62,847 bases of DNA from Candidatus Omnitrophota bacterium (GCA_043826565.1 JBDRPX010000022.1:1-62847), one strand, 5' to 3'. Counted from the first letter of the stretch, positions 15,902 through 62,565 are shown. Notes: generated from the sequence alone by a model not told the origin. Program-made: numbers and translations.

Positions 15902-15910
15902 GGAGGTAAT

Positions 15911-18040: not shown

Positions 18041-18057
18041 GGATGGGGTTATATTAA

Positions 18058-39660: not shown

Positions 39661-40023
39661 ATGAGGAGAAATTTTAGAAATATAAAAGCATGGCAGCGTT
39701 CAGATGATATGGTGATGTTGGTTTATAAGAAAAGCAGATCTTTTCCCCGAGAAGAATTGTATGGCTTGACTTCTCAGTTAAGAAGAGCAGCTTTATCGGT
39801 TCCAACAAATATTGCGGAGGGAGCAAGCAGAGACTTCCAAAAGGAATATCTTCAATTTTTAAATATAGCTAGTGGTTCAATTTCTGAGGTAGAGTATTTG
39901 TTGCATGTATCAAAAAGATTAAATTATTTAAATGAAAAAGATTATTTTGAGATAGAAATTGCTAGGAAAGAAGCAGCTAAACTTTTGCATGGACTTATTG
40001 TTTCTGTGAAAAATGACAAATAA
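39661..40023 (+). CDS. four-helix-bundle protein (23S rRNA intervening-sequence protein / Avd-like family)
   Basis: IKAWQRSDDMVMLVYK, YGLTSQLRRAALSVPTNIAEG and GSISEVEYLL are hallmark blocks of this family. 120 aa. GGTGA RBS. Confidence 0.85.
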   Translation: MRRNFRNIKAWQRSDDMVMLVYKKSRSFPREELYGLTSQLRRAALSVPTNIAEGASRDFQKEYLQFLNIASGSISEVEYLLHVSKRLNYLNEKDYFEIEIARKEAAKLLHGLIVSVKNDK

Positions 40024-46824: not shown

Positions 46825-46846
46825 AAGTTGACTCCTTTCAATGATA

Positions 46847-46875
46847 ATTATAGCTTAAGTTGAATTTTAAATCAA
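46847..46875 (-). promoter_or_regulatory. candidate sigma70 promoter for rpoN (TTGATT-17-TATAAT on the minus strand)
   Basis: The plus-strand sequence ATTATA at 46847-46852 and AATCAA at 46870-46875 correspond to the -10 and -35 on the minus strand. AAAGGAG RBS downstream. Confidence 0.45.
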
Positions 46876-46894
46876 GATATAGTAAACCCAAAAG

Positions 46895-46981
46895 ATCGAA
46901 AATTGAGTATTGAGAATTGAATGTTGTAAACTGTTTAAATATTTTCCAATTTTCTACTTTCAACTTTCAACCCTCATTTTT
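46895..46981. repeat. two oppositely oriented 7-nt phased arrays (ATTGAGN x5; CAACTTT-type x5)
   Basis: 46895-46929: ATCGAAA ATTGAGT ATTGAGA ATTGAAT GTTGTAA. 46947-46981: CAATTTT CTACTTT CAACTTT CAACCCT CATTTTT. Read in a shifted phase, both are NNNNTTG words on opposite strands. Confidence 0.8.
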
Positions 46982-47044
46982 ATAAAGTAATTCTGATGTT
47001 TTGCTTATGGTAAAACCGCGCAAGTTGTGTTATATTATAACTTA

Positions 47045-48457
47045 ATGAAAAAGATACTTTTGCTTAATCCACCGGGTAAATATCCTTATCTGCGCGATCA
47101 GTACTGCAGTTCCGCGGCCAAGGCAGGGTATTATTGGCCGGCTGTGGATTTGCTGGTTTTAAGCGGTATTCTAAGCCCGCATTTTGAGCTAAAAGTACTT
47201 GATGCAATTGTCGAAAAATCAAATTTGGGTGATGTTCTCGATATATTACAGAAAGATAAATATTCAGCGGTTATTTCTCTGGCTTCTTCGGCTAGTAAAG
47301 ACGAAGACTTTGAGCTGTTTAAACAAATCAAATTTCAACTAAATATACCGGTTATAGCAAACGGTGGTTTTTTACGTCTTAACCCCCAGGGCTATCTTCA
47401 AAATTTTAAATTTCTGGAAGCGGTTATTACCGATTATACCCAAGCCGGAATAGTAGATTTTCTAAACGGTCAAACTGTTGATCTTGAGGGTATTTGTATT
47501 CGCGGTGGTCAGGAAGTTAAGGGCAGTTATGATCCGCAAAAATATTTTTCTTATCCGGTACCCCGGCATGATCTATTTCCTTTAGAAAAGTATTTCACTC
47601 CCCAGTCTAAAGGGAGGAAGTTTTCCAGTGTTTTAACTTCTTATGGATGTTCATATAATTGCCGATTTTGCGCAAGTGCGAAAATTGAATATAAACTAAG
47701 GGATATCCCGAACCTTATTCAAGAACTTAAGAGCTTGACCAAGCTTGGTGTAAAAGAAATACATTTTCCTGATTTTACATTTACGGCAAATCGCTTGCAC
47801 TGTTTTAAGGTGTGCGAAACGATAATCAGGGAAAGACTGAATATTAGTTGGGATTGTCTTACCCGGTCGGATTGTTTTGATGAGCAGCTTCTGCGGTCTA
47901 TGAAAAAAGCCGGGTGCCACACTATTCAGGCCGGAGTAGAAACAAAAAACGAAAATGTTCTCAAAAATATGGGTAAGTATATTAGTAATAGCACTGTCCG
48001 CCAGGCTTTTGCTCTATGTCGAAAACATGAAATTGAAACAATAGGTTTTTTTATTATCGGATTGCCTGGAGAAGATAAAAAAAGTATTAAGCAGACAATA
48101 AAGTTTGCGAAGGAATTAAATTGTGATTATGCTTCGTTTTCCGTATTTGTGCCGGATTTCGGCAGTGATATCCGCCAAGAATTAGTCGCGGCTAATCCGC
48201 AGGTTGAATGGATATATGATTTTGACCGTACGAAATTTCCGGTTATTTCTAATGGATTTTTAAGCCCGAAGCAGATATGGAGTTTGCGTAATAAGGCGAT
48301 ACGGGATTTTTATTTTAGGTGGAGCTATGTTTGGAAGCGGTTAAGAGGCATTACTAATTTTAAAGCTCTCATAAATGCATTTAAAATATTTTGGTCGCTG
48401 TTTTATGATCAAATAAATGTTTGCGGGTCTCGCTACTTTAAAGGGGGGCAGTCATGA
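47045..48457 (+). CDS. B12-binding-domain radical SAM protein (paralog 2)
   Basis: MKKILLLNPPG N-terminus and SYGCSYNCRFCAS (CX3CX2C). The track ORF starts at GTG 47027. Confidence 0.85.
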   Translation: MKKILLLNPPGKYPYLRDQYCSSAAKAGYYWPAVDLLVLSGILSPHFELKVLDAIVEKSNLGDVLDILQKDKYSAVISLASSASKDEDFELFKQIKFQLNIPVIANGGFLRLNPQGYLQNFKFLEAVITDYTQAGIVDFLNGQTVDLEGICIRGGQEVKGSYDPQKYFSYPVPRHDLFPLEKYFTPQSKGRKFSSVLTSYGCSYNCRFCASAKIEYKLRDIPNLIQELKSLTKLGVKEIHFPDFTFTANRLHCFKVCETIIRERLNISWDCLTRSDCFDEQLLRSMKKAGCHTIQAGVETKNENVLKNMGKYISNSTVRQAFALCRKHEIETIGFFIIGLPGEDKKSIKQTIKFAKELNCDYASFSVFVPDFGSDIRQELVAANPQVEWIYDFDRTKFPVISNGFLSPKQIWSLRNKAIRDFYFRWSYVWKRLRGITNFKALINAFKIFWSLFYDQINVCGSRYFKGGQS

Positions 48458-49704
48458 AAATAGCGGTTATCGGAGCGGGATTCAGTGGTTTGCTTACCGC
48501 ATATTATCTGACCGGCAGGGCTGATGTTACGGTGTATGAAAAAGAAACATATACCGGAGGCCTGATCTCCGGGATTGAGTATGAAGGGGCAAGGATTGAC
48601 AAGTATAATTTGTTTCTAAGCCGAAATGATCGGGAGCTTATCGGACTGGTCAATGACCTGGGGCTTGAAGATGAACTTCTCTGGGCTGATGTTAATCAGG
48701 CTAAGATAATGGATAGTTGTTTTTTTCGGATGAGCATGCCTTGGGATATATTTTCTTTTTCTAATTTAAACTTTGCGCAAAAGTGTATGCTGGGGAGATT
48801 TATTCTGAAGAATAAGCTGATTAAGAACGCGGATTCATTGCGGGAAACCAAAGTGAAGGATTGGATAATAAATGAGTGCGGAGAAAAGATCTTTGAAGTT
48901 TTTTTTGAACCGCTTTTAAAATTTAAATTTGGTGAGTTTAATGATGTCAGCGCGGCTTATTTATGGGCTCGCTTTAATGAAGAAAAGAGAAACCGGATCG
49001 GATATTTTCGCAATGGGACAAGTTTGCTGACGTGTGCGCTTGAAGATACGATTAAAAGAGCCGGGGAAAAGGTTATCCTGGGAAAACCGGTTAATGAAAT
49101 AATCTTAGAAGATAATAAATGCCGGGTTATTACCGGAAGACAGGATGAATGCTATGACGCGGTGATTTCCTGTATCCCGGCAAATGAAACCGCGTTTTTG
49201 TGCCGGCAATGCCGGGAGCTTGAACCGCTGAAAAAACTGGAGTATTTATCAGTCGGTTCTTTTCTTATTGTCTTATCACAACCTTTAAAACCCGGTTATT
49301 GGCTGTTTACTGTGGAAGATAAAAACAATGGCGGCTTAAATGTGGTGGTGGATACTTCCGCGGTTAATGGCCGGAATATTATTTATTTTCCGGTATATCG
49401 AAGACAAAAGCCCGGACAGATGATCGATGAGGATGAGATCTTTCAGCAATGCCTGAAAGCGCTTAAGCGGATTAATCCGGAATTCTCGAAAGAATGGATT
49501 AAAGATAAATTCTTTTTTACTAACAGTAGTGTCGAGCCGGTATTAAGTTCTGAATTTTTCGAACAATTAACCGGTTCCGGCAAAAAAGGTATTTATATTC
49601 AGGAGATGGCGGCGCATCCGGATTTACTTAAGACGCTTAATACCGCGGTAATTAAAAGCAAGATCATCGCGAATAAAGTTTTGGCTCAAGGAAAGGTGAG
49701 TTAA
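48454..49704 (+). CDS. NAD(P)/FAD-dependent oxidoreductase (amine oxidase / protoporphyrinogen oxidase-like fold)
   Basis: KIAVIGAGFSGLLTAYYL dinucleotide-binding motif followed by VTVYEKETYTGG. ATGA overlap with the upstream radical SAM gene. Confidence 0.75.
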   Translation: MKIAVIGAGFSGLLTAYYLTGRADVTVYEKETYTGGLISGIEYEGARIDKYNLFLSRNDRELIGLVNDLGLEDELLWADVNQAKIMDSCFFRMSMPWDIFSFSNLNFAQKCMLGRFILKNKLIKNADSLRETKVKDWIINECGEKIFEVFFEPLLKFKFGEFNDVSAAYLWARFNEEKRNRIGYFRNGTSLLTCALEDTIKRAGEKVILGKPVNEIILEDNKCRVITGRQDECYDAVISCIPANETAFLCRQCRELEPLKKLEYLSVGSFLIVLSQPLKPGYWLFTVEDKNNGGLNVVVDTSAVNGRNIIYFPVYRRQKPGQMIDEDEIFQQCLKALKRINPEFSKEWIKDKFFFTNSSVEPVLSSEFFEQLTGSGKKGIYIQEMAAHPDLLKTLNTAVIKSKIIANKVLAQGKVS

Positions 49705-49706
49705 CG

Positions 49707-50609
49707 ATGTACGGAACCGTGCAGGTAGATTTAGACGGATTATGGACATACTGCCGGTACTTAGGCCGGGAAGTATCTCCGGAAAAAACCGATCCGGTTT
49801 ACACGGAAGGCCTTGTGCGTTTTCTTGAGCTTTTTAATAAATACAATATAAAAGCGACTTTTTTTATTGTCGGTAAAGACGCGCATAATCCCGTACACCG
49901 GGTATTGATCGAACAAATAGCCGGACAGGGACATGAAATAGCTAATCATACCATGACTCATCCGGAACGTTTTAGCTGTCTTTCGGAAAATGAAATCAAC
50001 AAGGAAATATCCCTGTGTTCGGATGTATTGCAAAAGATCAGCGGCCAGGAACCCGCGGGCTTCCGGGCGCCGACCTTCGGGGTGAATGAGAAAGTGCTTT
50101 CGGTGCTTTCGGATCGAGGTTATACCTATGATTCTTCCTTAGTCCCGTCCGGGATTTTACCTTTAATTATGGATGCCGCGCATTCGTTTTGGCGTAAGCG
50201 GATCATGAGTGTTCGGGCCGGACGATTAAGTTTCGGCCTGGCGCCTTTAGATATCTACCGGCCGCAAAAAAAAGTTCTTTGGAAAAGGGGACAGAACAGA
50301 TTAGTGGAAGTGCCGGTTTCGGTTATTCCGGGGCTGCGTTTGCCGATGCATAGTTCTTATGTTTTTTTGTTCGGTTTGAAGTATTTTGAATACGGGTTGA
50401 AAAAAATGCGAAAAGCTAATGTATCAATGAATTATTTATTTCATGGAATTGACCTGGTGGATCTTAGTACGCAGGATTTGAGATTGCCCGGAGCTAAACC
50501 GGTTAAAGACAGAATAATTTTGTGTGAACAGATTTTAAAAAAATTGCGGTTAGCGTTTGATCTAATGACCACAAAAAAACTGGTAACTAGGAGTGAGAAG
50601 AAAATATGA
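49707..50609 (+). CDS. polysaccharide deacetylase family protein (NodB homology)
   Basis: VDLDG, KATFFIVGKDA and GHEIANHTMTHP motifs. Confidence 0.8.
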   Translation: MYGTVQVDLDGLWTYCRYLGREVSPEKTDPVYTEGLVRFLELFNKYNIKATFFIVGKDAHNPVHRVLIEQIAGQGHEIANHTMTHPERFSCLSENEINKEISLCSDVLQKISGQEPAGFRAPTFGVNEKVLSVLSDRGYTYDSSLVPSGILPLIMDAAHSFWRKRIMSVRAGRLSFGLAPLDIYRPQKKVLWKRGQNRLVEVPVSVIPGLRLPMHSSYVFLFGLKYFEYGLKKMRKANVSMNYLFHGIDLVDLSTQDLRLPGAKPVKDRIILCEQILKKLRLAFDLMTTKKLVTRSEKKI

Positions 50610-51343
50610 TTTATGTGCTTTTGCCCGCGTATAATGAGGCTAAAAACATTAAGGCTCTCGTTTCTAAGATCAAGGAGGTTTTGACTAAAGAGCGTGAAAA
50701 GTTTTGTATTGTTATTGTTAATGACGGGAGTACGGATAATACCCAGGAGATTCTAAGAGAAACAGCGCTGAATATGCCGGAGCTTAAGGTGATTAACTTT
50801 GCGCAGAATAAAGGTGTGGGCGCGGTCTTTCGTGAGGGTATTGATCATATTTGCTCTCTGGCTAAAGATATTGATGTTATTATTTCGCTTGATTGCGATC
50901 TGAGCCATTCACCGGATGCTTTTCCCGGTGTGATCAAAGCCATAAAAGCCGGAAATGATATTGTTGTCGCGTCGCGTTATCATCGGATGAGTTCGACGGT
51001 CGATCTTCCGTTCAAACGGGAATTTTTAAGTAATAGTATAAATTTGCTTTTAAAGGTGATTTTTCCCATACCGGGGGTAAAAGACTATACGACTTTTTTC
51101 CGCGCTTACCGGGTAAGAATATTGAAAAAGGCGAAAGAGTTTTACCAAGACAGGTTTATCCGGCAGAAAGGATTTCCCGCGATGGCGGAGATTCTGATCA
51201 AATTAAGAAGGTTTAAACCTAAAGCTGATGAGGTAGCGATGTCCTTACGGTTTGATCTGCGTACGGGGGAAAGTAAGATGAATAAATTGGAAACAGTCAT
51301 TGATTATTTGAAGTTGATCGCTAGGTGCGCTTTTCGAAAATAA
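50606..51343 (+). CDS. GT2 polyprenyl-phosphate glycosyltransferase-like (DPM1/ArnC/GtrB-type catalytic domain, no TM)
   Basis: VLLPAYNEAKNI, VIVNDGSTDNT, ISLDCDLSH (DxD). 245 aa. ATGA overlap with the deacetylase gene. Confidence 0.8.
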   Translation: MIYVLLPAYNEAKNIKALVSKIKEVLTKEREKFCIVIVNDGSTDNTQEILRETALNMPELKVINFAQNKGVGAVFREGIDHICSLAKDIDVIISLDCDLSHSPDAFPGVIKAIKAGNDIVVASRYHRMSSTVDLPFKREFLSNSINLLLKVIFPIPGVKDYTTFFRAYRVRILKKAKEFYQDRFIRQKGFPAMAEILIKLRRFKPKADEVAMSLRFDLRTGESKMNKLETVIDYLKLIARCAFRK

Positions 51344-52739
51344 GATAAGAGAGCAGGTAGACCCCCAGTTTCCCCAGATGCAGCAGTTCTCTGGGATTTA
51401 AAGCCTTCTTTAAGATCCAGCCCAAAAATGACAAACTTAATATATAGCGCAGATAAATTTTTTTTTGAAATTTAGTTAGATCAGCTGCTTTAATATATTT
51501 CGTGCCCCACTGGGGAGTAGAGTGCATAAAGTTGAATTTTGACCAGTCGAGGTCTGTAATCATACCTTCTTTTTTCATTATGGAATAGATCTCTGTTCCC
51601 GGATAAGGACAGATTATGCCTAATTGAAAGATATCCGGTTTTATCTCGCGGAGCAGTTCTTCGGTCATTTTTATATCTTCAATTTTTTCTTCCGGATGAG
51701 TACCCAGAATAAAAAAAGCGCAGGCGACGATCTTTGCTTTATGGGTTAGCGCAAAAGCTTTTTTTACCTGCTCTAGGGTGATATTTTTTTTCATAAGTTT
51801 AAGCATTTTCGGACTGCCGGATTCTACGCCGTAAGCAATTTTTAAACAGCCGCAAGCTGCCATCTTTTTAATGAATTCTTCGTCGACAAAACTGACTTTT
51901 GTCTGGCAATCCCAGGTGAGTTTTAATTTTTTTAATCCATCGCAGATCGCGAACAGTCTTTTTCTGTCTAAAGTAAAGTTAGTATCCTCAAAAGTAATAT
52001 GGTTGTAACCATATTTTTCTTTACACTCACTTAATTCCCGGATAACGTTTTCCGCGCTGCGAAAACGTACGGTTGGCCCGGAGGTTTTTTTTACCGAGCA
52101 AAAAGTACAGTCTTGCGAACAGCCCCGGGAGGTGAACAGAACCGTAGACTTTTTCCCGGACATATTAATGCCCGCGGCATAAATATTTTTATAGAGACTG
52201 CGGTTTAATAATGAACGGTCGGGGAACGGCAGGGAATCTAAATCACTGATTGCTAAGCCGGGCTTATTTACTAAGACAGTATTATCTTTTTTATAAACAA
52301 TGCCGGGGATATTTTCCAAAGGTTTATTTTCCTTAAGATGCCGGCAGAGAGCCAGAAGGGAAATTTCTCCTTCGCCAATAATACCGAAATCAAATTCCGG
52401 AAAACTTTGCAGGGTATCTTCGGGTAAAGCGGATATATGCGGGCCGCCGCAGATGGTTTTAATTTCCGGGTTTACTTTTTTTATTAATTGCGCTACGTTT
52501 GAGGCATTATGGACTGTCGGGGTCATAAAGGTGATTCCGGCTAGGGAAATATCCTGATCTTTGATTTTTTGCCGGATGATTACTTCCGTGCAAGGTTCAA
52601 CTTCAAAGTCCCAAATGAATACTTTAAAGCCGTTATTTTGAAGATAAGCAGACAGGTAGAGTAGATTTATGGGTTCCTGAATAAGTATCTTTTCAAAAGC
52701 ACCGCTGATCTTGGGAGGCCGAATTAATGCGATATTCAT
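51321..52739 (-). CDS. B12-binding-domain radical SAM protein (paralog 3)
   Basis: MNIALIRPP N-terminus, CGGPHISALPE, SRGCSQDCTFCSV. Its 3' end overlaps the convergent GT2 gene by 23 nt. Confidence 0.85.
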   Translation of the reverse strand: MNIALIRPPKISGAFEKILIQEPINLLYLSAYLQNNGFKVFIWDFEVEPCTEVIIRQKIKDQDISLAGITFMTPTVHNASNVAQLIKKVNPEIKTICGGPHISALPEDTLQSFPEFDFGIIGEGEISLLALCRHLKENKPLENIPGIVYKKDNTVLVNKPGLAISDLDSLPFPDRSLLNRSLYKNIYAAGINMSGKKSTVLFTSRGCSQDCTFCSVKKTSGPTVRFRSAENVIRELSECKEKYGYNHITFEDTNFTLDRKRLFAICDGLKKLKLTWDCQTKVSFVDEEFIKKMAACGCLKIAYGVESGSPKMLKLMKKNITLEQVKKAFALTHKAKIVACAFFILGTHPEEKIEDIKMTEELLREIKPDIFQLGIICPYPGTEIYSIMKKEGMITDLDWSKFNFMHSTPQWGTKYIKAADLTKFQKKIYLRYILSLSFLGWILKKALNPRELLHLGKLGVYLLSYLIFEKRT

Positions 52740-52922
52740 ATCTTAGTTTAATGTAGATAATAAGTTATGGTTTTATATATAGTTGTATCTGCTTTGATAT
52801 TGTGATAAAATCTAGTAGACTTTTATTCATATGTTACTATTAATTTATGGATAAGTCAACGTTGGGGGTATTTGATAAAATAACGCTAACTTTAGAGAAT
52901 AAATCAAATTAGGACAAATTTC

Positions 52923-54422
52923 TTGAGAATATTACTGTTAAATCCCATTGATATAAATGTTGCTTGGCCGGTTAAAAATGATTTTGCCAAATATCTTTTC
53001 TGCAATCCTGGCGTTACTTTCCCTCTTTTGAGCGCGTTAATCCCCAAAAAGCATGAAGTTTTCTTTTTTGATGGTTTTTTTTATCAAATCAGTATCAAGA
53101 AATACAAAGCTTTGATAAAACAATATGATATTATTTTCCTGAGTATTGTTGATTCTTTGGTTTCTTTGAATTATGAAATAACCATAAAATTAATAAAAAA
53201 ACTCTATCCGGAAAAAATAATTATTGCCGGGGGAATACATGCTAACATTTATGCAAAAGATTGGCTGCAAAAAGGGGTCGACATTATTGTGAAAGGAGAA
53301 GCTGAAAAGAGTTTAGCAAAACTAATTGAAGCTATAGAGCAAAAAAGTTCTTGGCGGGAAATTAATGGGTTGATGTATTTGGAAAATAACATGATTAAAG
53401 AAACTGCCTCTTTTGGATTGTTGGATAATCTTGATGATTCGCCAATGCCTAATTGGGATATTGTGAATTTTAAATTATACAATTTAATGTTTAGAAAAGA
53501 AGGATATACCGCGGCTTTGGAAACTTCGCGGGGATGTATTAATGGTTGTAATTTTTGTTTAGTGAATTCATTTTGGGGAAAGAAACAGAGATATAAATCA
53601 ATACCACGCGTTTTAGAGGAATTGAAAGTTTTAAAGCGCTATGGTGTTTCTCAATTTGCTTTGCTTGATGATGGTTTTGCGAATGATGTTAATCGCGATG
53701 CGCAGCTTTTAGAAGCAATGTTAAGTGCGGGGCTGGATTTTAATTGGGGTGGTTTTTTAAGAATTGATACTATTATTGAGCATCCAGAGTTTGTTGATTT
53801 GGCCGCAAAGAGTGGTTTAAAACGGGTCGTTATCGGGTTTGAGCATACTAATGCCGATGTTTTGAATCGAATTAATAAAGGATTGAGTACTGTTATTGGC
53901 GATGAGCAATATGCTAAAGCTGTGGATGTATTAAAAAAGAATAATATATTCGCTGTAGGGCTTTTTATCTCGGGGTATCCCGGGCTTAAAAAGGATGAAA
54001 AACTTAAGTATAGTAAGGCTAGGAAATATTGTACAGACGCTCGGGCCGGTAATTATAAGGCTTTGCCCAGTACTTTTGGCTATAATAATATTTCCCGGGA
54101 TTTTGAGATCGAGGATATGTTTTATCATGACGCCAGATTGACATCTTCACCGCAAGCTTCCAAAGAACATTTTATCTTCAATCTCTTGGCTACATTAGAT
54201 CCGATTAAATACCTGCTTTTATTTGATCATCGTTATCACTTCCGTGAGTATTTTTATAAAAGTCTTTTACTGCTTTTTAAACAAATGTTTAATTTTAATT
54301 TGTCTAAAATTAGAGAGTTTATAGTTATGAAATTTTCAAAAAGGCCTATTAAAGAGAAGAAGCAGTACTTAATAAAAAAATATTTGTCAGATGAGTTTAT
54401 TAATCGGCTAATTGCAAAATAA
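52923..54422 (+). CDS. B12-binding-domain radical SAM protein (paralog 4)
   Basis: TTG start. RILLLNP, AGGIHANIY, SRGCINGCNFCLV. Confidence 0.8.
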   Translation: MRILLLNPIDINVAWPVKNDFAKYLFCNPGVTFPLLSALIPKKHEVFFFDGFFYQISIKKYKALIKQYDIIFLSIVDSLVSLNYEITIKLIKKLYPEKIIIAGGIHANIYAKDWLQKGVDIIVKGEAEKSLAKLIEAIEQKSSWREINGLMYLENNMIKETASFGLLDNLDDSPMPNWDIVNFKLYNLMFRKEGYTAALETSRGCINGCNFCLVNSFWGKKQRYKSIPRVLEELKVLKRYGVSQFALLDDGFANDVNRDAQLLEAMLSAGLDFNWGGFLRIDTIIEHPEFVDLAAKSGLKRVVIGFEHTNADVLNRINKGLSTVIGDEQYAKAVDVLKKNNIFAVGLFISGYPGLKKDEKLKYSKARKYCTDARAGNYKALPSTFGYNNISRDFEIEDMFYHDARLTSSPQASKEHFIFNLLATLDPIKYLLLFDHRYHFREYFYKSLLLLFKQMFNFNLSKIREFIVMKFSKRPIKEKKQYLIKKYLSDEFINRLIAK

Positions 54423-54441
54423 ATCTAAAGTGTTTTCTATT

Positions 54442-55920: not shown

Positions 55921-55984
55921 AGGCAAAAGACTTGATATGAGAATAAATTAAATATGAAGAGATGCACGGATTGGAGAAAAATGC

Positions 55985-57481
55985 ATGCAGTTTAAGAAAA
56001 AAATAAAGAAGGTTATGTTGATCTTTCCCACGGGAAAAGTTATGAAGTGGCGTTTTCACCATTGCGAAATCCCCATGGGGCTGGCATATTTAGCCGCGGT
56101 TTTGCGCGAGGACTTTGAGGTTAAGGTGCTTGATGGCCGGGCTAAGTTTCAAAGGATCGTACCGAAAAACAGTAAATGGGAATATTTTGGATATACTCCG
56201 AAGGAGATTGTTGAGCAGATTAAAGATTATGCTCCGGATGTGGTGGGGATTAGCTGCCTTTCTTCGTTCCACTTTCCCGATGTTGTTGATTTGTTTGAGC
56301 GGATCAAGAAAATCGATAATGAGATTGTTACCGTAACCGGTGGAACTCATCCGACGTTTTTAGCTGATGAAGTTATGCAAAAGCATCCCGGTATTGATTT
56401 TATTGTTATGGGGGAAGGGGAGGAAACTTTTCATCAACTTCTTCTGAATATAAATTCTGAAAAAGAATATGATCAGCTTGATGGCCTGGCTTTTCGTAAT
56501 AATGGTACTTATCAAATTAATCCTAAAACAAAATATATTAAAAACCTGGATGACTTGCCGTATCCGGCATTTGATCTTTTCCCTTTAGATTTTTATGAAA
56601 AGAAAAGCATTCCGTTTAGTGTGACTTTTCGCAGTAAAAAGACAATTCCGATTATAACCAGCCGCGGTTGTGCGGCCCAGTGTGTATTCTGTGCTTCAAA
56701 AAATTTCTGGGGTAAGCGTTACCGCATGCGTTCCGCGGAAAATGTATTAAATGAAATAGAATATGTTGTTAAAAAATACGGGGTCGAGGAGATCCAGTTT
56801 ATCGACGATAATCTCACCTTAGATAAAAATAGATCCTGTAAGATTTTTCAAGGCCTGATTGACCGGAATATAAATATCCACTGGAATACGCCTAATGGCA
56901 TCGCGGTCTGGACGCTGGATGAACCGATGCTGGAGCTGATGAAAAAAAGCGGATGTTATGAATTAACCGTTGCTTTTGAAAGCGGGGATCAGGAAGTCCT
57001 TAACCGGATAATTAAGAAACCGCTGGATTTAAAGTACGCGGCAAAGATGGTCCATAAGATGAAGGAGCTCGGAATACAGGTTCATTCATTTTTTATTTCC
57101 GGATTTCCCGGGGAAACTAAGGAGCAGATACTCCGGACTTTTTCTTTTGCCGAAAAAATGGATTTAGACAGTGCCTGGTTTTTTATCGCTAACCCGACCC
57201 CGGGATCGGAATTATACGAGATCTGCAAGAACGAAGGATATATAAAGGATGGTTTTTCGTTTGACGATATCGAATATAATATGTCCCATATAGAGACTAA
57301 TGAGTTTACTTCCGGGGAAATGGAGAAACTTGTGGTGGCACAGTTCAATAGGTATAATTTAGGTCAGATGGCAAAACATCCTATACGTTTTTTTAAAAAA
57401 TATCTTGGGGTGATTATTGCTCATCCGATCATGTCTTTGCGGACTGTTTTGGCTGACATCCTGAAAGTTACGGGTAAATGA
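55985..57481 (+). CDS. B12-binding-domain radical SAM protein (paralog 6)
   Basis: KKVMLIFP, TGGTHPTFLAD, SRGCAAQCVFCAS, DDNLTLDK, WNTPNGIA. Confidence 0.85.
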   Translation: MQFKKKIKKVMLIFPTGKVMKWRFHHCEIPMGLAYLAAVLREDFEVKVLDGRAKFQRIVPKNSKWEYFGYTPKEIVEQIKDYAPDVVGISCLSSFHFPDVVDLFERIKKIDNEIVTVTGGTHPTFLADEVMQKHPGIDFIVMGEGEETFHQLLLNINSEKEYDQLDGLAFRNNGTYQINPKTKYIKNLDDLPYPAFDLFPLDFYEKKSIPFSVTFRSKKTIPIITSRGCAAQCVFCASKNFWGKRYRMRSAENVLNEIEYVVKKYGVEEIQFIDDNLTLDKNRSCKIFQGLIDRNINIHWNTPNGIAVWTLDEPMLELMKKSGCYELTVAFESGDQEVLNRIIKKPLDLKYAAKMVHKMKELGIQVHSFFISGFPGETKEQILRTFSFAEKMDLDSAWFFIANPTPGSELYEICKNEGYIKDGFSFDDIEYNMSHIETNEFTSGEMEKLVVAQFNRYNLGQMAKHPIRFFKKYLGVIIAHPIMSLRTVLADILKVTGK

Positions 57482-59007
57482 ATAAATTTAAAAAAAATAT
57501 CAAGAAAGTTTTACTGATATTTCCGCCGGTCGTGTGTTCGAATGAAAGTCCTAAGCAGATCATGCCGCCGTTGGGAATAAGTTATCTGGGGGCATATTTA
57601 GAGCCTTATTATGAAGTAAAACTTCTGGATGCGGCATTAGAAGGGTATAATTATGAACGCCGGGTATGCCCGGGATTTTTTCAGTATGGCCTAAGTGATG
57701 AAAAGATCAAAAAAATAATATCCGAATTTTTACCGGATGTTGTGGGAGTGTCCTGCTTATATTCAAGCCAGTTTCCCGCGGTGGCCAATATCTGCAGTAT
57801 TGCCAAAGCGGTGTCTAGTGAGATAATTACTTTTATCGGCGGTACGCATCCTACTTTTTTGCCCAGAGAGTGTCTGGAGTATAAGACAATAGATTTTATT
57901 ACCTTAGGTGAAGGTGAATTGCCGGCGAAAGCTTTACTGGACGCTCTTAATCACGGAACCTCTTATGAAAAATTAGACGGCCTGGCGTACCGGTCGGACA
58001 ATAGTATTTATGTTAATCCGCAGAAAAGAATTATTGAAGATATCGATACTTTACCTTTTCCGGCAAGGCATTTACTGCCTCTGGAAAAATATTTTCGTAT
58101 CGGCTTGCCTATGGGGCTGGTAAGCCGGCAAACACCGGCAATCAATATCGTGACTTCCCGGGGATGCCCGTTTAACTGTTCATTTTGTTCCTCATGCCAT
58201 TTTTGGAGTAGGCGATACCGCACCCGTTCAGTGAAAAACGTTTTAGCGGAAATGGAAGAACTTAAGAAGATGGGGGTGCGGGAACTAAAGTTTTTTGATG
58301 ATAATCTAACTTTAGATAAACAGCGGGCCAAGGATTTGTTTAAAAGTATGATTGCCAGGAAATTCAATTTTACCTGGAATACTCCCAATGGAATAGCGGC
58401 CCAGACCTTGGATGAAGAATTACTTATTTTAATGAAAGACAGCGGCTGTTATGAAGTAACCTTGGCAATTGAGAGCGGGGATGAGCGGGTATTAAAAGAT
58501 GTGCTGAAAAAACCGATTGATCTAACCCATACTTTAGCTATGGCTAAACTTATTAAAAAACACCGGATGGACACATATGGTTTTTTTATTATCGGGTTCC
58601 CTCAGGAAACAAAAAAACAAATATATAATACTTTGGCTTTTATCAATAAAATCAAGCTGGATAGGATTTCCCTGTTTATTGCCAATCCTTTGCCCGGTAC
58701 GGAAATTTACGATATTTGTAAGAAAGAGGGATACTTGCCGGAAACAGTAACCGGCAAGTCTTTGGATTACTTTAGTTCGGTTTTTGCAACGCCGGAGTTT
58801 GATTCCGCGTTCTTAGAAAAAATCCGGCGCCGGTGGTATTGGGAGTATAATCTGAAACTCTTATTAAGAAATCCGTTTAAGTTTTTCCAAAAGTATAGTA
58901 TATTTATAATCAAGCGTCCGCTGTTTATGCTGCGGATTTTAATTAACAAAATTATCATGCCGAGTATAAGCCATGCAAAATGCAGAACAGCAAAAAACAA
59001 AATTTAA
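57478..59007 (+). CDS. B12-binding-domain radical SAM protein (paralog 7, closest to paralog 6)
   Basis: KKVLLIFPP, IGGTHPTFLPR, SRGCPFNCSFCSS, DDNLTLDK, WNTPNGIA. ATGA overlap with paralog 6. Confidence 0.85.
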   Translation: MNKFKKNIKKVLLIFPPVVCSNESPKQIMPPLGISYLGAYLEPYYEVKLLDAALEGYNYERRVCPGFFQYGLSDEKIKKIISEFLPDVVGVSCLYSSQFPAVANICSIAKAVSSEIITFIGGTHPTFLPRECLEYKTIDFITLGEGELPAKALLDALNHGTSYEKLDGLAYRSDNSIYVNPQKRIIEDIDTLPFPARHLLPLEKYFRIGLPMGLVSRQTPAINIVTSRGCPFNCSFCSSCHFWSRRYRTRSVKNVLAEMEELKKMGVRELKFFDDNLTLDKQRAKDLFKSMIARKFNFTWNTPNGIAAQTLDEELLILMKDSGCYEVTLAIESGDERVLKDVLKKPIDLTHTLAMAKLIKKHRMDTYGFFIIGFPQETKKQIYNTLAFINKIKLDRISLFIANPLPGTEIYDICKKEGYLPETVTGKSLDYFSSVFATPEFDSAFLEKIRRRWYWEYNLKLLLRNPFKFFQKYSIFIIKRPLFMLRILINKIIMPSISHAKCRTAKNKI

Positions 59008-61048
59008 ACACACGGATCTAATCATTTCAATAGGCATTTTCTTTTTTGCGTATTTTCTGCGCATGGTTTATCTGCATCAGTATAAAAATAATCCTTTTTT
59101 TGACAGCCCGGTAATTGATGCTTTGACAAATTATTTGTTTGCCGTGCGGGCCAGCGCGGGAGATTGGTTTGTCAAAGGTGAAGTAGTCGGCCGGGGGCCG
59201 GTATATGTCTATTTTCTGGCTTTTCTATTTAAAATTTTCGGGACCGGTTTTAGTGCCGCGCGAGTGGCCCAGATGGTTCTAGGCTCAGTTAATTGTATTT
59301 TGGTATATTTTCTGGGGAAAAAGATTTTCCGCCGTTCGGTAGGCGTAATCAGTGCGCTTATCTGTAGTGCGTATGGAGTGTTGATTTATTTTGACGCGGA
59401 GTTCTTATATGTGGGGCTTTCAATATTTTTGAATTTGTTATTACTCCTATCTTTATTAAATACAATTGAAAAACCTAAGATTTGGAAATGGGTTGGCTGC
59501 GGCATGCTGCTCGGGGGGTGTCTTCAAACCAACGCGACCGTAATTTTGTTTATTCCGCTGCTTTTTGTGTGGATATTTCTATTTATTGATAAAAAGGAAA
59601 AGAAAGAAAAGGAAGCAGAGCCGGAAAGTAGGAAACTGCGTTTTAAAAAAGCTGTTTGTATATTCTTAATAGTTGTTTTGGGTATAGGCATTATTGTGCT
59701 GCCGTTTACCTTAAGGAATTACCTTATGGGCGGGGATTTGGTAATGATCGGTTCAGCTATCGGAATTAACCTGCATATCGGGAATAATCCGGAAGCTGAC
59801 GGTAAGAGCGTAGCTGTACCGACACGGGATTTTTCTTATGATTCGAAATGGTACGATAATGTGCTGACGTCTGCTTTAAAAGCCGCGGAAAGAGATGTCG
59901 GCAGGGAACTATTGCCTTCTGAAGTTTCTAATTATTGGATGATGAAATCCCTGGGGTTTATTATAACTCATCCCATAGCTACTTTGGGTCTTGCGGCACG
60001 AAAGATTTTTTACTTTTTTAATGCTTATGAGATCGCGGAAAATCAAAGTATTTATTTTTACCGGATCTGGTCGCCGTTACTGAAAATATTGGTTTTTCAC
60101 AATAAGGTATTGGCTTTTCCTTTTGGGATAATTTGTCCATTAGCTTTATTGGGGATCGCGGTTTCTTTAAAAAGGGATAAGGCAACTATGCTGCTGATTA
60201 TTTTTATCGGGGCATATCTTATTCTGATGGTGATATTCTTTGTTTGCAGCCGCTACCGGGCGAGTGTTATCCCATATTTTATAATTTTTGCCGTGTCTGC
60301 TCTTGAGTGGTATCGACAGCAAATTATCGAACGTAAATTTAAGCTCATACTATTTTCGTTTATCCCTCTGCTTTGGTTTTTTGTTTTTTGCAATGCGACA
60401 ATCTTTGAAGTTCGCCAAGAGGATAATTCCCGCTGGTTTTTGAATATGGGTACAGCTTATCGGAATAAAGGGCAGAATGAAAAGGCACTTAAATCTTTTA
60501 AAGCGGCCCAAAAAGTAAACCCGCATAATCCTGATGCGATGTATAATCTCGGTGTTTTGTATTTAGAAAAGGGAGAATATGAAAAGGCTATAGAGGAATT
60601 TAAAAATTCAATTAATATGGATAAGGATGATTCCGCGGCTTATTCTAATATGGGCTTGGCCTTGTTTAAACAAAATAAGCTGGAGGAGGCTGTTTCCAGT
60701 TTTGAATCAGCCCTGAGAATTGACCCTGCTGATGTGGGAGCAGCGGCAAACCTGGGAGCTGCTTTTATTGCCAAAGGCGACTTTCCGGCAGCGCTGCGGG
60801 TACTTAAAAACGGGCTGGCGAAAGATTCGAAGTTTCCGCCGCTTTACCTGCATTTGGGTATATTGTTTGAAAATACCGGTAAGTTTGCGGATGCCGAGAA
60901 GGCCTATTTAACCGCGATAAAATTTAACCAAAAATATTTTCAGGCTCATTACAATCTATATGAACTTTATGATAAAATGGGCTTAGCGGAACAGGCTCTG
61001 CAGGCAAGGATCAGAGCGATGGAAATATTTCCGGATATGTATAAATAA
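58973..61048 (+). CDS. GT-C fold glycosyltransferase (ArnT/PMT_2-like) fused to C-terminal TPR repeats
   Basis: About 470 aa with roughly 11 TM helices, then about 200 aa of canonical TPRs (AMYNLGVLYLEKGEYEKAIEEFKNSI..., AYSNMGLALFKQNKLEEAVSSFESAL...). 35-nt overlap with paralog 7. Confidence 0.8.
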   Translation: MQNAEQQKTKFKHTDLIISIGIFFFAYFLRMVYLHQYKNNPFFDSPVIDALTNYLFAVRASAGDWFVKGEVVGRGPVYVYFLAFLFKIFGTGFSAARVAQMVLGSVNCILVYFLGKKIFRRSVGVISALICSAYGVLIYFDAEFLYVGLSIFLNLLLLLSLLNTIEKPKIWKWVGCGMLLGGCLQTNATVILFIPLLFVWIFLFIDKKEKKEKEAEPESRKLRFKKAVCIFLIVVLGIGIIVLPFTLRNYLMGGDLVMIGSAIGINLHIGNNPEADGKSVAVPTRDFSYDSKWYDNVLTSALKAAERDVGRELLPSEVSNYWMMKSLGFIITHPIATLGLAARKIFYFFNAYEIAENQSIYFYRIWSPLLKILVFHNKVLAFPFGIICPLALLGIAVSLKRDKATMLLIIFIGAYLILMVIFFVCSRYRASVIPYFIIFAVSALEWYRQQIIERKFKLILFSFIPLLWFFVFCNATIFEVRQEDNSRWFLNMGTAYRNKGQNEKALKSFKAAQKVNPHNPDAMYNLGVLYLEKGEYEKAIEEFKNSINMDKDDSAAYSNMGLALFKQNKLEEAVSSFESALRIDPADVGAAANLGAAFIAKGDFPAALRVLKNGLAKDSKFPPLYLHLGILFENTGKFADAEKAYLTAIKFNQKYFQAHYNLYELYDKMGLAEQALQARIRAMEIFPDMYK

Positions 61049-61050
61049 AA

Positions 61051-62565
61051 TTATAATTTTTTAATCAAAGACCTTGAGAGTATCCATCCGGAAAGCATTG
61101 CCGTAGTTACTCCTGTTCCGGGAATAGTCCAATGCCCGGATAAATAAAGATTTTTAATCGGAGTGGTTTGCCTTAATCGGTATATTAACGACTGATCAGG
61201 AGTATTAGCCCAGCCGTACATCGCTCCTTGGTGGCTTGATGAAAAATTATTCAGGTCCTGCGGTGTGAATACTTTCTTAACCACAATATGATCAGATAGG
61301 TTTTTGACTTTTTGTTCTGCCATTTTAATCATTTCTTCGGCAATTTCCTCTTTTGCTTTACGCCAATCACGTTCTGTATTCCAGGGGAGAAAAGCGGTTA
61401 AGATCAAAGTACTGTGTCCCTTTGGCGCTAAACCTGGTTCAATATGGGTTGGGGTATAGGCACTTAAGCAGGAAATATAACCTTTTTCGAGTTTTTCAAA
61501 GCACTTGGTGAAATCAAGTGAATCGTAAAAAAAGTATTCGTGTTTATCAAGGCCGTTTTTTGCAATATCAAAATCAAGGCCGAGAAATAATTTAAAAGGT
61601 CCCACCGCCGGAGTCAGCTTTGACAGTTTTTTTATATATTTTTTAGGTGCGGCTTCAGGATCAATCAGTTTTGTAAAAGTCTGGGTAACGTCCGCGTTGG
61701 AAATGATTGTTTTAGCAAATAGCTTTTGCCCGTTTTCTAAAATTACTCCTTGGGCAGTATTGTCTTGAACGATTATTTTTTTAACACCCGATCTAAGTAA
61801 AACTTTGCCCTGGTTTTCCTCAATGGCTTGAACAAAGACATCAGCAATTTTTTGTGAATTGCCTTGCGGATAATACGTGTGTTCGCCATACAGGCCGCTC
61901 ATGCACGACATTAACATTAATCCGGAAATTCTATCCGGCGGTAATCCCAGGTATGGCCAGCACGCTGTAAACAACGTTATTAAGTATTTATTTTTAGTTA
62001 ATATGCTGAAAAATTTGTCCGCGGTTTTTAGAGAATTGAATAACCAGAACAAGCCGGTAAAAGGATAGGTTAGTTTTTTTAATAATCCTATTTTTTCATA
62101 ATCACTCTTTTCTACTGCTTGCTTGCCCTGAAAAATCCGCGCGGTAATCATGATGTCCTGACGCCAGGCTAGCATTATCTTGAAAAATTTACGGATATCT
62201 TTCTTGCTCTTCGGAGACTGCGCAATCATGATTTTTTCAAGGTCAGCATAATTGCCGGGGAGGGGAATTTCCTGATCAGGTAAGATTAAGGTAACAAAAG
62301 GGTCAATTTTGAAAAATTTAAGTTTATCTTTAATGCCATAAGCCTCAAGGATACGCGCACAATTGCCTCGTTCGTCAATTCCGGCTAATTGGTGCACGGC
62401 TAAATCAAAAGTATAGTCGCCAAGCTGAAAGGCAGAGCAATTGCCTCCGGGAACCGGGTTGCGTTCACAAACAACAACTTTTTGTCCTGTCCGGGCTAAG
62501 CCTAAAGCAGCGGATAAACCGCCCATACCGCTGCCGATAACTATTACATCTACGTGATCCTGCAT
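61051..62565 (-). CDS. phytoene desaturase-family (CrtI/CrtD-like) FAD-dependent oxidoreductase
   Basis: DVIVIGSGMGGLSAA dinucleotide motif. About 500 aa. C-terminal LYLSGHWTIPGTGVTTAMLSG, typical of the family. Confidence 0.75.
   Translation of the reverse strand: MQDHVDVIVIGSGMGGLSAALGLARTGQKVVVCERNPVPGGNCSAFQLGDYTFDLAVHQLAGIDERGNCARILEAYGIKDKLKFFKIDPFVTLILPDQEIPLPGNYADLEKIMIAQSPKSKKDIRKFFKIMLAWRQDIMITARIFQGKQAVEKSDYEKIGLLKKLTYPFTGLFWLFNSLKTADKFFSILTKNKYLITLFTACWPYLGLPPDRISGLMLMSCMSGLYGEHTYYPQGNSQKIADVFVQAIEENQGKVLLRSGVKKIIVQDNTAQGVILENGQKLFAKTIISNADVTQTFTKLIDPEAAPKKYIKKLSKLTPAVGPFKLFLGLDFDIAKNGLDKHEYFFYDSLDFTKCFEKLEKGYISCLSAYTPTHIEPGLAPKGHSTLILTAFLPWNTERDWRKAKEEIAEEMIKMAEQKVKNLSDHIVVKKVFTPQDLNNFSSSHQGAMYGWANTPDQSLIYRLRQTTPIKNLYLSGHWTIPGTGVTTAMLSGWILSRSLIKKL

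Follow-up and report, generated by a model that had tools for sequence, protein, structure and literature searches.

A conserved radical SAM gene island of Candidatus Omnitrophota that may build and tailor a lipid-linked amino sugar

Introduction

Antibiotic resistance, serotype and protein glycosylation are shaped by the Arn, Gtr, PMT and Lgm pathways. In the Arn pathway (ArnC/ArnD/ArnT), a GT2 glycosyltransferase loads a sugar on polyprenyl phosphate, a deacylase acts on the lipid-linked sugar and a GT-C enzyme transfers it on the periplasmic side; LgmA/C/B, FlmF2/NaxD/FlmK and PpgS/Rv3779 are analogues of this route. The radical S-adenosylmethionine (SAM) enzyme AprD4 is a cobalamin-independent 1,2-diol dehydratase acting on the glucosamine ring of paromamine. 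In the HpnI/HpnK/HpnJ route, glycosylation with N-acetylhexosamine (HexNAc) and deacetylation are followed by radical SAM (rSAM) chemistry on the amino sugar (PMC13459092), and the proteins TMTC1-4 combine an ArnT-like GT-C domain with C-terminal TPR repeats on the extracytoplasmic side (PMC7801869). Here we analyse a DNA stretch of 62,847 nucleotides from Candidatus Omnitrophota bacterium (GCA_043826565.1, JBDRPX010000022.1:1-62847), referred to throughout as the window, in which an island of eleven genes at positions 47,045 to 62,565 encodes six rSAM enzymes (rS1 to rS6), two flavoproteins (FAD1 and FAD2), a deacetylase (CE4), a glycosyltransferase (GT2) and a membrane protein with a TPR domain (GT-C). 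A sequence-only reading of the window had proposed this gene map, which was reproduced from the list of open reading frames (ORFs) and their Pfam matches (Table 1).

That the island is a conserved, unexplained system is well supported, and the basis for this is entirely comparative genomics. As to its function, we favour a reading that we judge about equally likely to be right or wrong, namely that the island would build a lipid-carrier-linked amino sugar and tailor it by radical chemistry on the cytoplasmic face, with GT-C using the product as a donor outside. This reading is suggested by the combination of a GT2 of the polyprenyl-phosphate type, a deacetylase (CE4 in the island, YdjC in other loci), an AprD4/HpnJ-like rSAM enzyme and a GT-C.

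Results

An eight-gene core is conserved in Omnitrophota relatives

Among assemblies, an exact copy occurs only in a 6.3-kb metagenomic contig. When species-representative genomes were scanned with rS6, four loci were returned, in metagenome-assembled genomes (MAGs) of Candidatus Omnitrophota/PVC, with rS6 orthologs of 62-78% identity. When the eleven island proteins were compared with the loci of relatives by tblastn, one-to-one orthology was found, each paralog matching its own ortholog best. In loci L002-L005 and in L094 (GCA_004196255.1), the order rpoN(-), rS1-FAD1-CE4-GT2-rS2(-)-rS5-rS6-(GT-C), pyrR/B/C is kept as far as the loci reach, the fetched L002 beginning within FAD1 and L094 ending within rS6. 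The rpoN gene lies upstream in every relative with that side visible (L003, L004, L005 and L094), and pyrR, pyrB and pyrC lie downstream of the island in relatives. L094 also has rS3 and rS4 in the same order as the window, as well as the same upstream genes, encoding a transglutaminase, an ABC transporter, a PilZ protein, pyruvate kinase, a Big_5/beta-propeller protein and RpoN.

In L003, L004, L005 and L094, the position of rS1 is taken by an ortholog of 52-60% identity, and orthologs of CE4 are present in all five loci. L002-L005 carry orthologs of rS2 (65-74% identity) and rS5 (60-83%), and in these four relatives, whose loci reach it, the GT-C gene overlaps rS6. The distribution of three other genes is narrower: rS3 is found only in the window, in L002 (79% identity) and in L094, being absent from L003 and L005, with an rSAM-SPASM gene occupying the rS3/rS4 slot in L004; rS4 is found only in the window, in L002 (85% identity) and in L094; and FAD2 is found only in the window/L001 and in L002, being absent from L003-L005, with L094 ending before its position. 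The core comprises eight genes, and rS3, rS4 and FAD2 are lineage-specific accessories. Recurrence of the gene set as a conserved unit, which the sequence-only reading had named as a check, is borne out for eight genes in five other Omnitrophota/PVC genomes, and not for rS3, rS4 and FAD2, which are variable. The rS4 ortholog of L002 (region 6917-8393) appears as two tblastn pieces, 6914-8188 and 8214-8393, with the ORF ending at 8272, suggesting that this MAG contains a frameshift or was misassembled there.

The GC content is flat across the window (0.36-0.41), and together with the conserved housekeeping flanks this identifies the locus not as a mobile element but as eight core genes, inherited vertically, plus a slot in which the rSAM genes vary. 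The possibility of a mobile island was ruled out by the flat GC content, the lack of tRNA genes in the window and the housekeeping flanks standing in the same order in relatives. The number of rSAM genes, six in 15.5 kb in an arrangement kept in other genomes, is far beyond chance. Close orthologs of FAD1, rS1 and GT-C fall into approximately 12-30 distinct clusters at 90% identity, and all taxon-named ones belong to Omnitrophota or PVC.

GT2, CE4 and GT-C resemble components of lipid-linked sugar pathways

GT2 has a Glycos_transf_2 domain (PF00535, 95 bits), contains no hydrophobic or transmembrane segment and ends in an amphipathic helix. Its top PDB match is the dolichyl-phosphate mannose synthase (DPMS) of P. 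furiosus (5mlz, E 5.7e-23, residues 2-240), to whose catalytic domain the whole length of GT2 aligns, followed by GtrB (5ekp) and ArnC, and its top NCBIfam matches are ArnC, PgfS, the Halo Dol-P-hexose transferase, PpgS and AglJ, all under their equivalog cut-offs. Nearly all the named enzymes in this group attach a sugar to polyprenyl phosphate; HpnI is absent from the 18 NCBIfam matches at E ≤ 0.001, and HpnB reaches 25 bits. Judged by homology, GT2 falls within the polyprenyl-phosphate glycosyltransferase type (DPMS/GtrB/ArnC-like).

CE4 matches Polysacc_deac_1 at 80.7 bits, with a NodB fold and the metal-binding motif HTMTH in its translation; among NCBIfam models it comes closest to the XrtA-system polysaccharide deacetylase (79 bits, cut-off 276), and ArnD reaches 21 bits. 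GT-C consists of a polytopic membrane domain (residues ~1-477, with ~11-13 hydrophobic segments) and a C-terminal TPR domain (~480-691, six to seven repeats), the former matching PMT_2 (PF13231) at residues 75-210 with 55 bits against a cut-off of 26.1 and the latter matching many TPR models. Since the loops before the last transmembrane segments are rich in K/R, the positive-inside rule places the TPR domain, by prediction, in the periplasm. Residue D49 in the first external loop (PVIDA) is invariant in a 12-sequence alignment and at least 90% conserved in a 30-sequence alignment, and may be catalytic. The AlphaFold2 (AF2) model of GT-C has a pLDDT of 87.9. Distant database matches of GT-C include a TMTC1, aligned via the TPR region.

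These assignments agree with the sequence-only reading, which had named a soluble DPM1/ArnC-type GT2, a NodB-type deacetylase and a GT-C/TPR transferase and had drawn an analogy to the Arn and Hpn pathways. The analogy is reinforced by the DPMS/GtrB/ArnC matches and by the combination of rS1 with YdjC (HpnK/NaxD-type), GT2 and GT-C in other phyla described below.

rS1 is an AprD4/HpnJ-like enzyme

All six rSAM ORFs match Radical_SAM (PF04055) with 57-95 bits, above the cut-off of 29.5, and contain C-x3-C-x2-C. In rS1 this is the only Pfam match: a B12-binding domain is not detected, the sequence NGGF stands in place of GGxH, and the cluster motif is SYGCSYNCRFC, that is, SYGC-x3-C-x2-C and not SRGC. 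The claim that all six enzymes share a B12-type domain, GG-x-H and SRGC consequently fails for rS1, and the B12-binding match of rS3 lies just below the cut-off.

The AF2 model of rS1 (pLDDT 90.8, from a 32-sequence alignment) has AprD4 in complex with paromamine (6fd2) as its best PDB match, with a Foldseek E-value of 1.4e-25, TM-scores of 0.76/0.79, 488 aligned columns and 22% identity. According to the predicted model, the AprD4 fold extends over the full length, including a degenerate, AprD4-like N-terminal Rossmann domain; this is a resemblance of modelled fold, which does not in itself establish function. The top NCBIfam matches of rS1 are HpnJ (134 bits), PhpK and AprD4 (106 bits), all far under their cut-offs, with 500 bits required for AprD4 (NF033070) and 32-113 bits reached by the other island rSAM enzymes. 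Every rS1 relative tested has HpnJ as its highest-scoring named family, and nine members of the rS1 family from other phyla score 136-222 bits against the HpnJ cut-off of 577.6. We conclude that rS1 is AprD4/HpnJ-like and that it is probably no B12 enzyme.

In an alignment of the rS1 family (numbering of database entry P0091), the cysteines of the CX3CX2C motif are C202/C206/C209. Among the others, C257 does not vary, and C21, C271 and C291 show at least 90% conservation; nearly invariant, too, is an N-terminal motif, R17-D18-x2-C21...K26...W31-P32...D35. Judging from the alignment, the additional conserved cysteines and the N-terminal motif could mark an auxiliary cluster or a substrate site.

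The rS1 family is linked to glycosyltransferase genes across phyla

Database searches with rS1 returned 835 homologs at E ≤ 1e-10, many of them of ~40% identity from Aminicenantes, Coatesbacteria, Falkowbacteria and Micrarchaeia. The family extends over CPR/Patescibacteria, DPANN archaea, Aminicenantes, Chloroflexota, Planctomycetota, Thermodesulfobacteriota and Omnitrophota. An alignment-based scan of 185,579 species genomes yielded at least 421 loci, the best 80 of which, from more than 10 phyla, were analysed using ORFs and home-made iterative hidden Markov models (HMMs); owing to this mode of detection, the GT-C frequencies are lower bounds.

In 33 of the 80 loci (41%), a GT2 gene is found no more than 3 kb from the rS1 homolog, and 31 of 34 such genes are on the same strand, compared with a background of 2 among 602 ORFs located more than 5 kb away (0.3%). 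GT-C genes occur within 10 kb in at least 21 of the 80 loci, another class-B rSAM gene within 3 kb in 26, and an FAD1-like gene within 4 kb in 7. Pfam annotation of three independent contexts in different phyla (Falkowbacteria, Aminicenantales and another MAG) showed a PMT_2 gene next to the rS1 homolog each time, and twice a short GT2 as well. Recurrent gene orders are 'GT2-rS1' (in many phyla), 'rS1-YdjC-GT2-GT-C', 'GT2-MT-rS1-YdjC-rS2-rS5/6-GT-C', where MT is a methyltransferase, and 'FAD1-rS2-rS1'; YdjC takes the place of CE4 in 5 loci, and rS2-like genes are the commonest rSAM partners of rS1 in other phyla. Clustering of the neighbours further revealed recurrent NAD epimerase/dehydratase, hexapeptide acyltransferase, AsnB amidotransferase, GDSL esterase, SAM methyltransferase, Bac_transf and YdjC genes; of these, the NAD epimerase/dehydratases, hexapeptide acyltransferases, AsnB and SAM methyltransferases are enzymes of sugar tailoring. 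In a similarity network, rS1 belongs to a 61-member cluster from 60 loci at ≥300 bits, and rS5/rS6, rS2, rS4 and rS3 form small clusters limited to the close relatives of the window. The association of rS1 with GT2, GT-C, a deacetylase (CE4 or YdjC) and class-B rSAM genes, for which a neighbourhood analysis had been recommended, recurs across phyla.

Multi-rSAM arrays were encountered elsewhere in this survey. L071 (Nealsonbacteria, CPR; 2808-19000) contains 9 class-B-like rSAM genes in 21 kb, and L068 (an archaeal MAG; 1-7195) contains 6 in 7 kb plus a GT2; multi-rSAM islands thus recur in small-celled uncultivated lineages.

rS2 to rS6 lie outside characterised families

The six proteins are old, mutually distant paralogs (25-33% identity), except for rS5 and rS6 (43.5%). 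The cut-off of the Pfam B12-binding model (PF02310, 32.1 bits) is exceeded by rS2 (B12-binding 74.8, Radical_SAM 79.9 bits), rS4 (55.5 and 77.2), rS5 (94.5 and 95.1) and rS6 (77.2 and 77.4), and rS3 stays just under it (29.6 and 57.5). Among NCBIfam models, rS2 is closest to HpnJ (193 bits), ApyD (173) and BchE (163), all below the cut-off, and rS3 is nearest to BchE. The best match of rS4 is the ladderane-type lipid rSAM family TIGR04072 (141 bits against 360). rS5 and rS6 resemble the P-methyltransferase Sden_1168 (311 and 335 bits against 575), in the case of rS5 over nearly the full length, and the best PDB match of rS6 is the methylase MgmA (9ccb). The Sden_1168 and PhpK cut-offs (575 and 600 bits) are not reached, and the annotated ORFs include no pepM-type gene. 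Scores for HpnJ (TIGR03471, cut-off 577.6) are 134, 193, 84, 119, 213 and 170 bits for rS1 to rS6, respectively, and HpnR is among the weaker matches of the island rSAM enzymes (66-103 bits against 650). No island rSAM enzyme attains the curated NCBIfam cut-off of any characterised family, so that the paralogs stand, as the sequence-only reading had anticipated, outside the characterised families.

None of the hopanoid partner genes shc, hpnH, hpnI and hpnK was found among the ORFs of the 63-kb window scanned with Pfam and NCBIfam. An explanation by hopanoid or bacteriochlorophyll synthesis was rejected on account of the HpnJ, HpnR and BchE scores, which are far under the cut-offs, and the lack of partner genes. 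Likewise, the Pfam scan of window ORFs detected no squalene-hopene cyclase (SHC), non-ribosomal peptide synthetase (NRPS) or polyketide synthase (PKS) domains. The intergenic space of the island totals less than 750 nt, and neither a conserved small ORF nor a precursor peptide was detected in or beside it: ORFs of 20-41 aa have no counterpart in L002-L005, and the 21-aa ORFs in the rS2/rS3 intergenic region are not kept in relatives. The sole small-ORF match in tblastn (55769-55951) was discarded as an out-of-frame shadow of the conserved 3' end of rS4. These scans agree with the initial statement that a squalene-hopene cyclase, a precursor peptide and NRPS/PKS genes are missing. With the family scores and the co-conservation in relatives, all three checks that the sequence-only reading had set as possible refutations thus turned out in its favour.

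The C-termini of all six rSAM enzymes and of GT2 are strongly amphipathic helices, as seen without a control set, which would be weakly consistent with work at the membrane surface.

FAD1 and FAD2 are flavoproteins with distant named relatives

FAD1 matches Amino_oxidase (84 bits) and has an amine-oxidase/protoporphyrinogen oxidase (PPO) fold, in line with its earlier description as PPO/amine-oxidase-like. Over its full length it exceeds the cut-off of NCBIfam NF005560 (PRK07233; 271 against 252 bits), a family without assigned function. Its PDB relatives, PF1083, PPO and LkcE, are all weak, as is a resemblance to HpnE. FAD2 had been called CrtI-like; this holds in the sense of a distant relationship, with 175 bits for crtI_fam (TIGR02734) against a cut-off of 238.1, and PDB matches to 4rep (E 1.3e-32) and CrtI (4dgk).

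A genome scan for the FAD1 family made use of the N-terminal dinucleotide-binding motif only, and ~37 of its 72 loci are true full-length relatives. In about 20 of these 37, mostly from Chloroflexota, the PRK07233-type gene lies directly downstream of an LPG_synthase_TM gene. Methanomicrobiales have FAD-GT2-LPG_synthase_TM-DUF2298-DUF2298 operons, and SAR202 has a DUF2298-PMT_2-LPG_synthase_TM-FAD-SDR operon. The loci of FAD1 relatives (L100-L133; L009/L010 4788-12086; L119 and L122) represent a second uncharacterised membrane glycosylation-type module.

Gene junctions and surroundings of the island

Table 1. Coordinates of the island genes and adjoining features in the window
Feature	Coordinates	Strand	Remarks
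rpoN	45376-46824	-	flanking gene, outside island
divergent intergenic region rpoN/rS1	46825-47026		from ORF coordinates
rS1	47027/47045-48457	+	probable start ATG 47045, as in database entry P0091; first operon gene; core
FAD1 (Amino_oxidase)	48454-49704	+	core
CE4 (Polysacc_deac_1)	49707-50609	+	core
GT2	50606-51343	+	245 aa; core
rS2	51321-52739	-	B12-binding rSAM; core
divergent intergenic region rS2(-)/rS3(+)	52740-52922		weak sigma-70-like matches
rS3	52923-54422	+	class-B-like rSAM; accessory
rS4	54412-55920	+	B12-binding rSAM; alternative ATG start 54442; accessory
rS5	55985-57481	+	B12-binding rSAM, methyltransferase-like; core
rS6	57478-59007	+	B12-binding rSAM, methyltransferase-like; core
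GT-C (PMT_2 + TPR)	58973-61048	+	core
FAD2	61051-62565	-	distant CrtI/CrtD-family flavoprotein, convergent with GT-C gene; accessory

The ORF coordinates confirm the overlaps noted at the outset: 4-nt overlaps of the ATGA type at rS1/FAD1, CE4/GT2 and rS5/rS6, a 35-nt overlap of rS6 and GT-C, and a convergent overlap of 23 nt at the 3' ends of GT2 and rS2. The 4-nt and 35-nt overlaps indicate co-translation. The intergenic region between rS2 and rS3 presumably carries the promoters of a second transcription unit. With respect to FAD2, for which a strong promoter of its own had been claimed, the best sigma-70-like site of the region (TTGACA-17-TAATAT, 62673-62645) does lie upstream of the gene; however, promoter-like sites as a class are no commoner than in shuffled sequence (37 found against 45.6 expected). 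A scan of the window with the strict sigma-54 -24/-12 pattern (TGGYWYR-N4-YTGCW) gave no match that would lend the conserved adjacency of rpoN a regulatory meaning. Rfam at the gathering threshold and ARAGORN detected no RNA elements in the window, hence no cobalamin riboswitch.

A strongly positive GC skew is seen in all 2-kb segments (0.07-0.26), and nearly all genes are on the plus strand, the only minus-strand genes being rpoN, rS2 and FAD2. A 126-aa antisense ORF within rS6 (58008-58388, minus strand), the sole nested ORF of more than 100 aa in the island, is most likely spurious.

An extracellular polysaccharide (EPS) locus and an exosortase/PEP-CTERM locus lie upstream of the island (3.4-33.7 kb of the window). 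Both are real, as the sequence-only reading had stated, and its further proposal of their products as possible acceptors of the island finds no support; ~13 kb of unrelated genes intervene, and the conserved neighbours of the island are rpoN and the pyr genes. The EPS locus (3375-33743) is of the Wzx/Wzy type and encodes a secretin, a GNVR chain-length protein, a ParA-like kinase, a Wzy_C protein, GT4 and GT2 enzymes, a WecA-like Glycos_transf_4 protein, two UDP-GlcNAc 2-epimerases, a heparinase II/III-like protein, AsnB, and GH20- and GH123-like proteins; exosortase EpsH, EpsI (DUF3485) and two PEP-CTERM proteins follow. At the head of the secretin/EPS locus stands a seventh class-B-like rSAM gene (1501-2841, plus strand; 446 aa, B12-binding 34.7 bits, CPFQCTYC), which shares no more than 20-24% identity with the six island paralogs and clusters with nothing else in the similarity network. 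An ABC ATPase gene and an ABC_tran_2 gene flank the gene for a 23S rRNA-intervening-sequence protein (PF05635, 119 bits; 39661-40023, plus strand); in L094 the same two ABC genes adjoin, ~55 nt apart, with no called gene between them.

Discussion

The data establish the identity of the genes at the level of domain or fold, their close coupling, the conservation of eight core genes and the association of the rS1 family with GT2, GT-C, deacetylase and further class-B rSAM genes in many phyla. From the relatives of each protein we infer the substrates, step order, chemistry and acceptor of a possible pathway. GT2 would transfer HexNAc from a nucleotide sugar to polyprenyl phosphate, and CE4 would then deacetylate it, a step for which known systems employ ArnD, NaxD, LgmC and HpnK. 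rS1 would abstract a hydrogen from the amino sugar, leading to dehydration/deoxygenation or ring contraction, and FAD1 would carry out a redox step associated with the rS1 reaction. rS2, rS5 and rS6, joined in some lineages by rS3 and rS4, would introduce B12-dependent C-methylation or other radical modifications. The modified sugar would then be flipped and transferred by the PMT_2-type GT-C to an acceptor selected by the periplasmic TPR domain, a protein being a plausible acceptor. We advance a wider claim tentatively, with the chances leaning against it: the rS1 family and its B12-rSAM partners would form a phylogenetically broad, previously unrecognised system performing radical chemistry, be it deoxygenation, ring contraction to a cyclitol or C-methylation, directly on polyprenyl-phosphate-linked amino sugars, dedicated GT-Cs would attach the resulting novel envelope sugars to periplasmic or surface acceptors, and the TPR domain would select the acceptor in the present case.

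Several observations weigh against such a pathway. GT2 is without the C-terminal transmembrane anchor of DPMS, GtrB and ArnC, so that its lipid acceptor is deduced from homology; as short soluble DPM1-type enzymes exist, the missing helices do not exclude the activity. A Foldseek search of the PDB with the full GT-C model returned TPR proteins for all of the top 50 matches, and searches with the membrane domain (phmmer with residues 1-476; hmmsearch with the 12-sequence profile) returned no PDB chain at E ≤ 1. The putative assignment to GT-C accordingly rests on the PMT_2 match and the invariant aspartate in loop 1. A flippase of the GtrA, ArnE/F or LPG_synthase_TM type is not encoded in the island. 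Of the rS1-family loci, ~44% have neither a GT2 nor a detected GT-C nearby. The nearest relatives of rS1 outside Omnitrophota (44-47% identity, one from Coatesbacteria; L095 2943-6460 and L096 9216-13548) are set in another conserved context, Hexapep-rSAM-CpgS_N-LolA, in which the rS1-like gene itself is accompanied by genes for a hexapeptide acyltransferase, a 454-aa CpgS_N protein (PF27272) and LolA, with no GT2 or GT-C near. Finally, the likeness of rS4 to the ladderane-type rSAM, of FAD2 to CrtI and, weakly, of FAD1 to HpnE hints at a hydrocarbon substrate.

The strongest rival, in our view an unlikely one, is that the island makes a membrane-glycolipid head group of the HpnI/HpnK/HpnJ or calditol-synthase type. 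Here GT2 would glycosylate a resident lipid, CE4 would deacetylate the sugar and rS1 would contract the ring to a cyclitol, the other rSAM enzymes and flavoproteins would methylate, cyclise or desaturate, and GT-C/TPR would be accessory or separate; the first three steps are shared with the carrier-linked pathway, and the two differ in the lipid and in the role of GT-C. The triad of GT2, deacetylase and rSAM mirrors HpnI/HpnK/HpnJ (PMC13459092), no named family scores higher than HpnJ for rS1, rS2 and all rS1 relatives tested, the YdjC that replaces CE4 in five loci is of the HpnK family, rS4 is nearest to a lipid-biosynthesis rSAM enzyme and FAD2 is CrtI-like, and the lipid-modifying rSAM genes Hbs and Mss have been reported for Omnitrophota in the literature. 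However, HpnJ scores remain at or below 222 bits, well under the cut-off, the annotated ORFs of the window include no SHC, HpnH, Tes or Mss-like gene, and GT2 resembles DPMS, GtrB and ArnC, with HpnI missing from its matches. Moreover, the donors of GT-C enzymes are lipid-linked, and the gene in question is translationally coupled to rS6 and kept in the four relatives whose loci extend that far, which favours the carrier-linked pathway.

Alternatively, two separate modules could share one locus, an Arn/Gtr-like GT2-CE4-GT-C set and an independent set of B12-rSAM enzymes and flavoproteins modifying isoprenoid or alkyl lipids (e.g. the polyprenol carrier or core membrane lipids) or another metabolite. 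The minus-strand position of rS2, the coming and going of rS3, rS4 and FAD2 between genomes, the existence of multi-rSAM arrays with no obvious glycosyl module, such as that of L071, and the usual action of CrtI-family and HpnE/PPO-like flavoproteins on isoprenoids or tetrapyrroles would all fit. Against these points, the rSAM and glycosyl genes are interleaved, with overlaps at rS1/FAD1, rS5/rS6 and rS6/GT-C, the interleaved order is kept in five relatives, and the same-strand adjacency of rS1 and GT2 recurs across phyla, so that we regard this arrangement as improbable. A secondary-metabolite cluster, producing either an rSAM-matured ribosomally synthesised and post-translationally modified peptide (RiPP) or a small molecule of the aminoglycoside, moenomycin or phosphonate kind, seems to us very improbable indeed. 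The named relatives of the island enzymes do include RiPP methylases (ApyD, TIGR03975), the P-methyltransferases PhpK and Sden_1168 and the aminoglycoside enzyme AprD4, and a glycosyltransferase, a deacetylase, an FAD oxidase, an AprD4-like enzyme and B12 methylases recall aminoglycoside tailoring. Yet there is no conserved small ORF in or beside the island, the annotated ORFs contain no pepM, NRPS, PKS, 2-deoxy-scyllo-inosose synthase, exporter or resistance gene, the fixed position between rpoN and pyrR/B/C looks vertically inherited, and GT-C enzymes bearing a periplasmic TPR domain do not belong to clusters of this kind.

If the carrier-linked amino-sugar pathway is correct, it would add a new class of enzymatic step to envelope glycobiology; we know of no case in which the Arn, Gtr, PMT or Lgm pathways tailor a carrier-bound sugar by radical SAM chemistry. 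It would also provide the first functional context for a large orphan rSAM family (835 homologs, at least 421 loci) and predict unusual surface sugars, which might be C-methylated, deoxygenated or carbocyclic, on ultra-small uncultivated bacteria and archaea, whose cell-cell attachment draws current interest. More generally, the gene neighbourhoods may reflect an association, not recognised before, between an orphan rSAM family and lipid-linked sugar metabolism in diverse uncultivated phyla. To enzymologists, the island presents a naturally occurring series of five or six divergent class-B-like rSAM enzymes that presumably act sequentially on one scaffold. In the literature searched in full text, there is no description of this cluster type or of rSAM enzymes embedded in a GT2/GT-C module.

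Comparison with known systems

With the Arn pathway the island shares the three successive activities of loading, deacylation and periplasmic-side transfer; the deacylase of Arn is of the CE4 type and NaxD is of the YdjC type. The island proteins are, however, distant from the Arn equivalogs (ArnC 63.5 against 529 bits, ArnD 21 against 382), the island is without nucleotide-sugar genes of the ArnA/ArnB type and without an ArnE/F flippase, and its GT-C bears TPR repeats. We know of no rSAM or flavoprotein step in Arn or its analogues. The glycosylate-deacetylate-rSAM logic is that of HpnI/HpnK/HpnJ and of the calditol synthase Cds, with HpnJ the best named family for rS1 and rS2, but the island proteins reach between a quarter and a third of the HpnJ cut-off, hopanoid genes are lacking in the window, GT2 is DPMS-like and not HpnI-like, and the island adds a GT-C and three to five further rSAM enzymes. 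To AprD4/AprD3 and GenK/GenD1 the island is related through the predicted AprD4 fold of rS1 and the methyltransferase-like B12-rSAM enzymes rS5 and rS6; it differs in having neither an AprD3-type reductase nor aminocyclitol genes, in its presumed lipid-linked substrate and in being a core-genome envelope locus.

The GtrA/GtrB/GtrC, PMT and TMTC systems likewise pair a GtrB/DPMS-type GT2 with a GT-C using a lipid-linked monosaccharide, and the ArnT-like-plus-TPR architecture of the eukaryotic TMTC O-mannosyltransferases is that of the island GT-C. Unlike the Gtr system, the island has no GtrA flippase; to our knowledge, radical tailoring does not occur in Gtr, PMT or TMTC systems. The lipid-modifying enzymes GrsA/B, Hgm, HpnP/HpnR and the ladderane family TIGR04072 have the same class-B rSAM architecture, TIGR04072 being the best model for rS4, but their scores are low (141 against 360 bits for TIGR04072, 66-103 against 650 for HpnR), and no cognate lipid-core genes lie near the island. 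Set beside these systems, the island would combine lipid-linked monosaccharide glycosylation with an added stage of radical tailoring, and we interpret it as an uncharacterised variant of the Arn/Gtr/HpnIJK logic.

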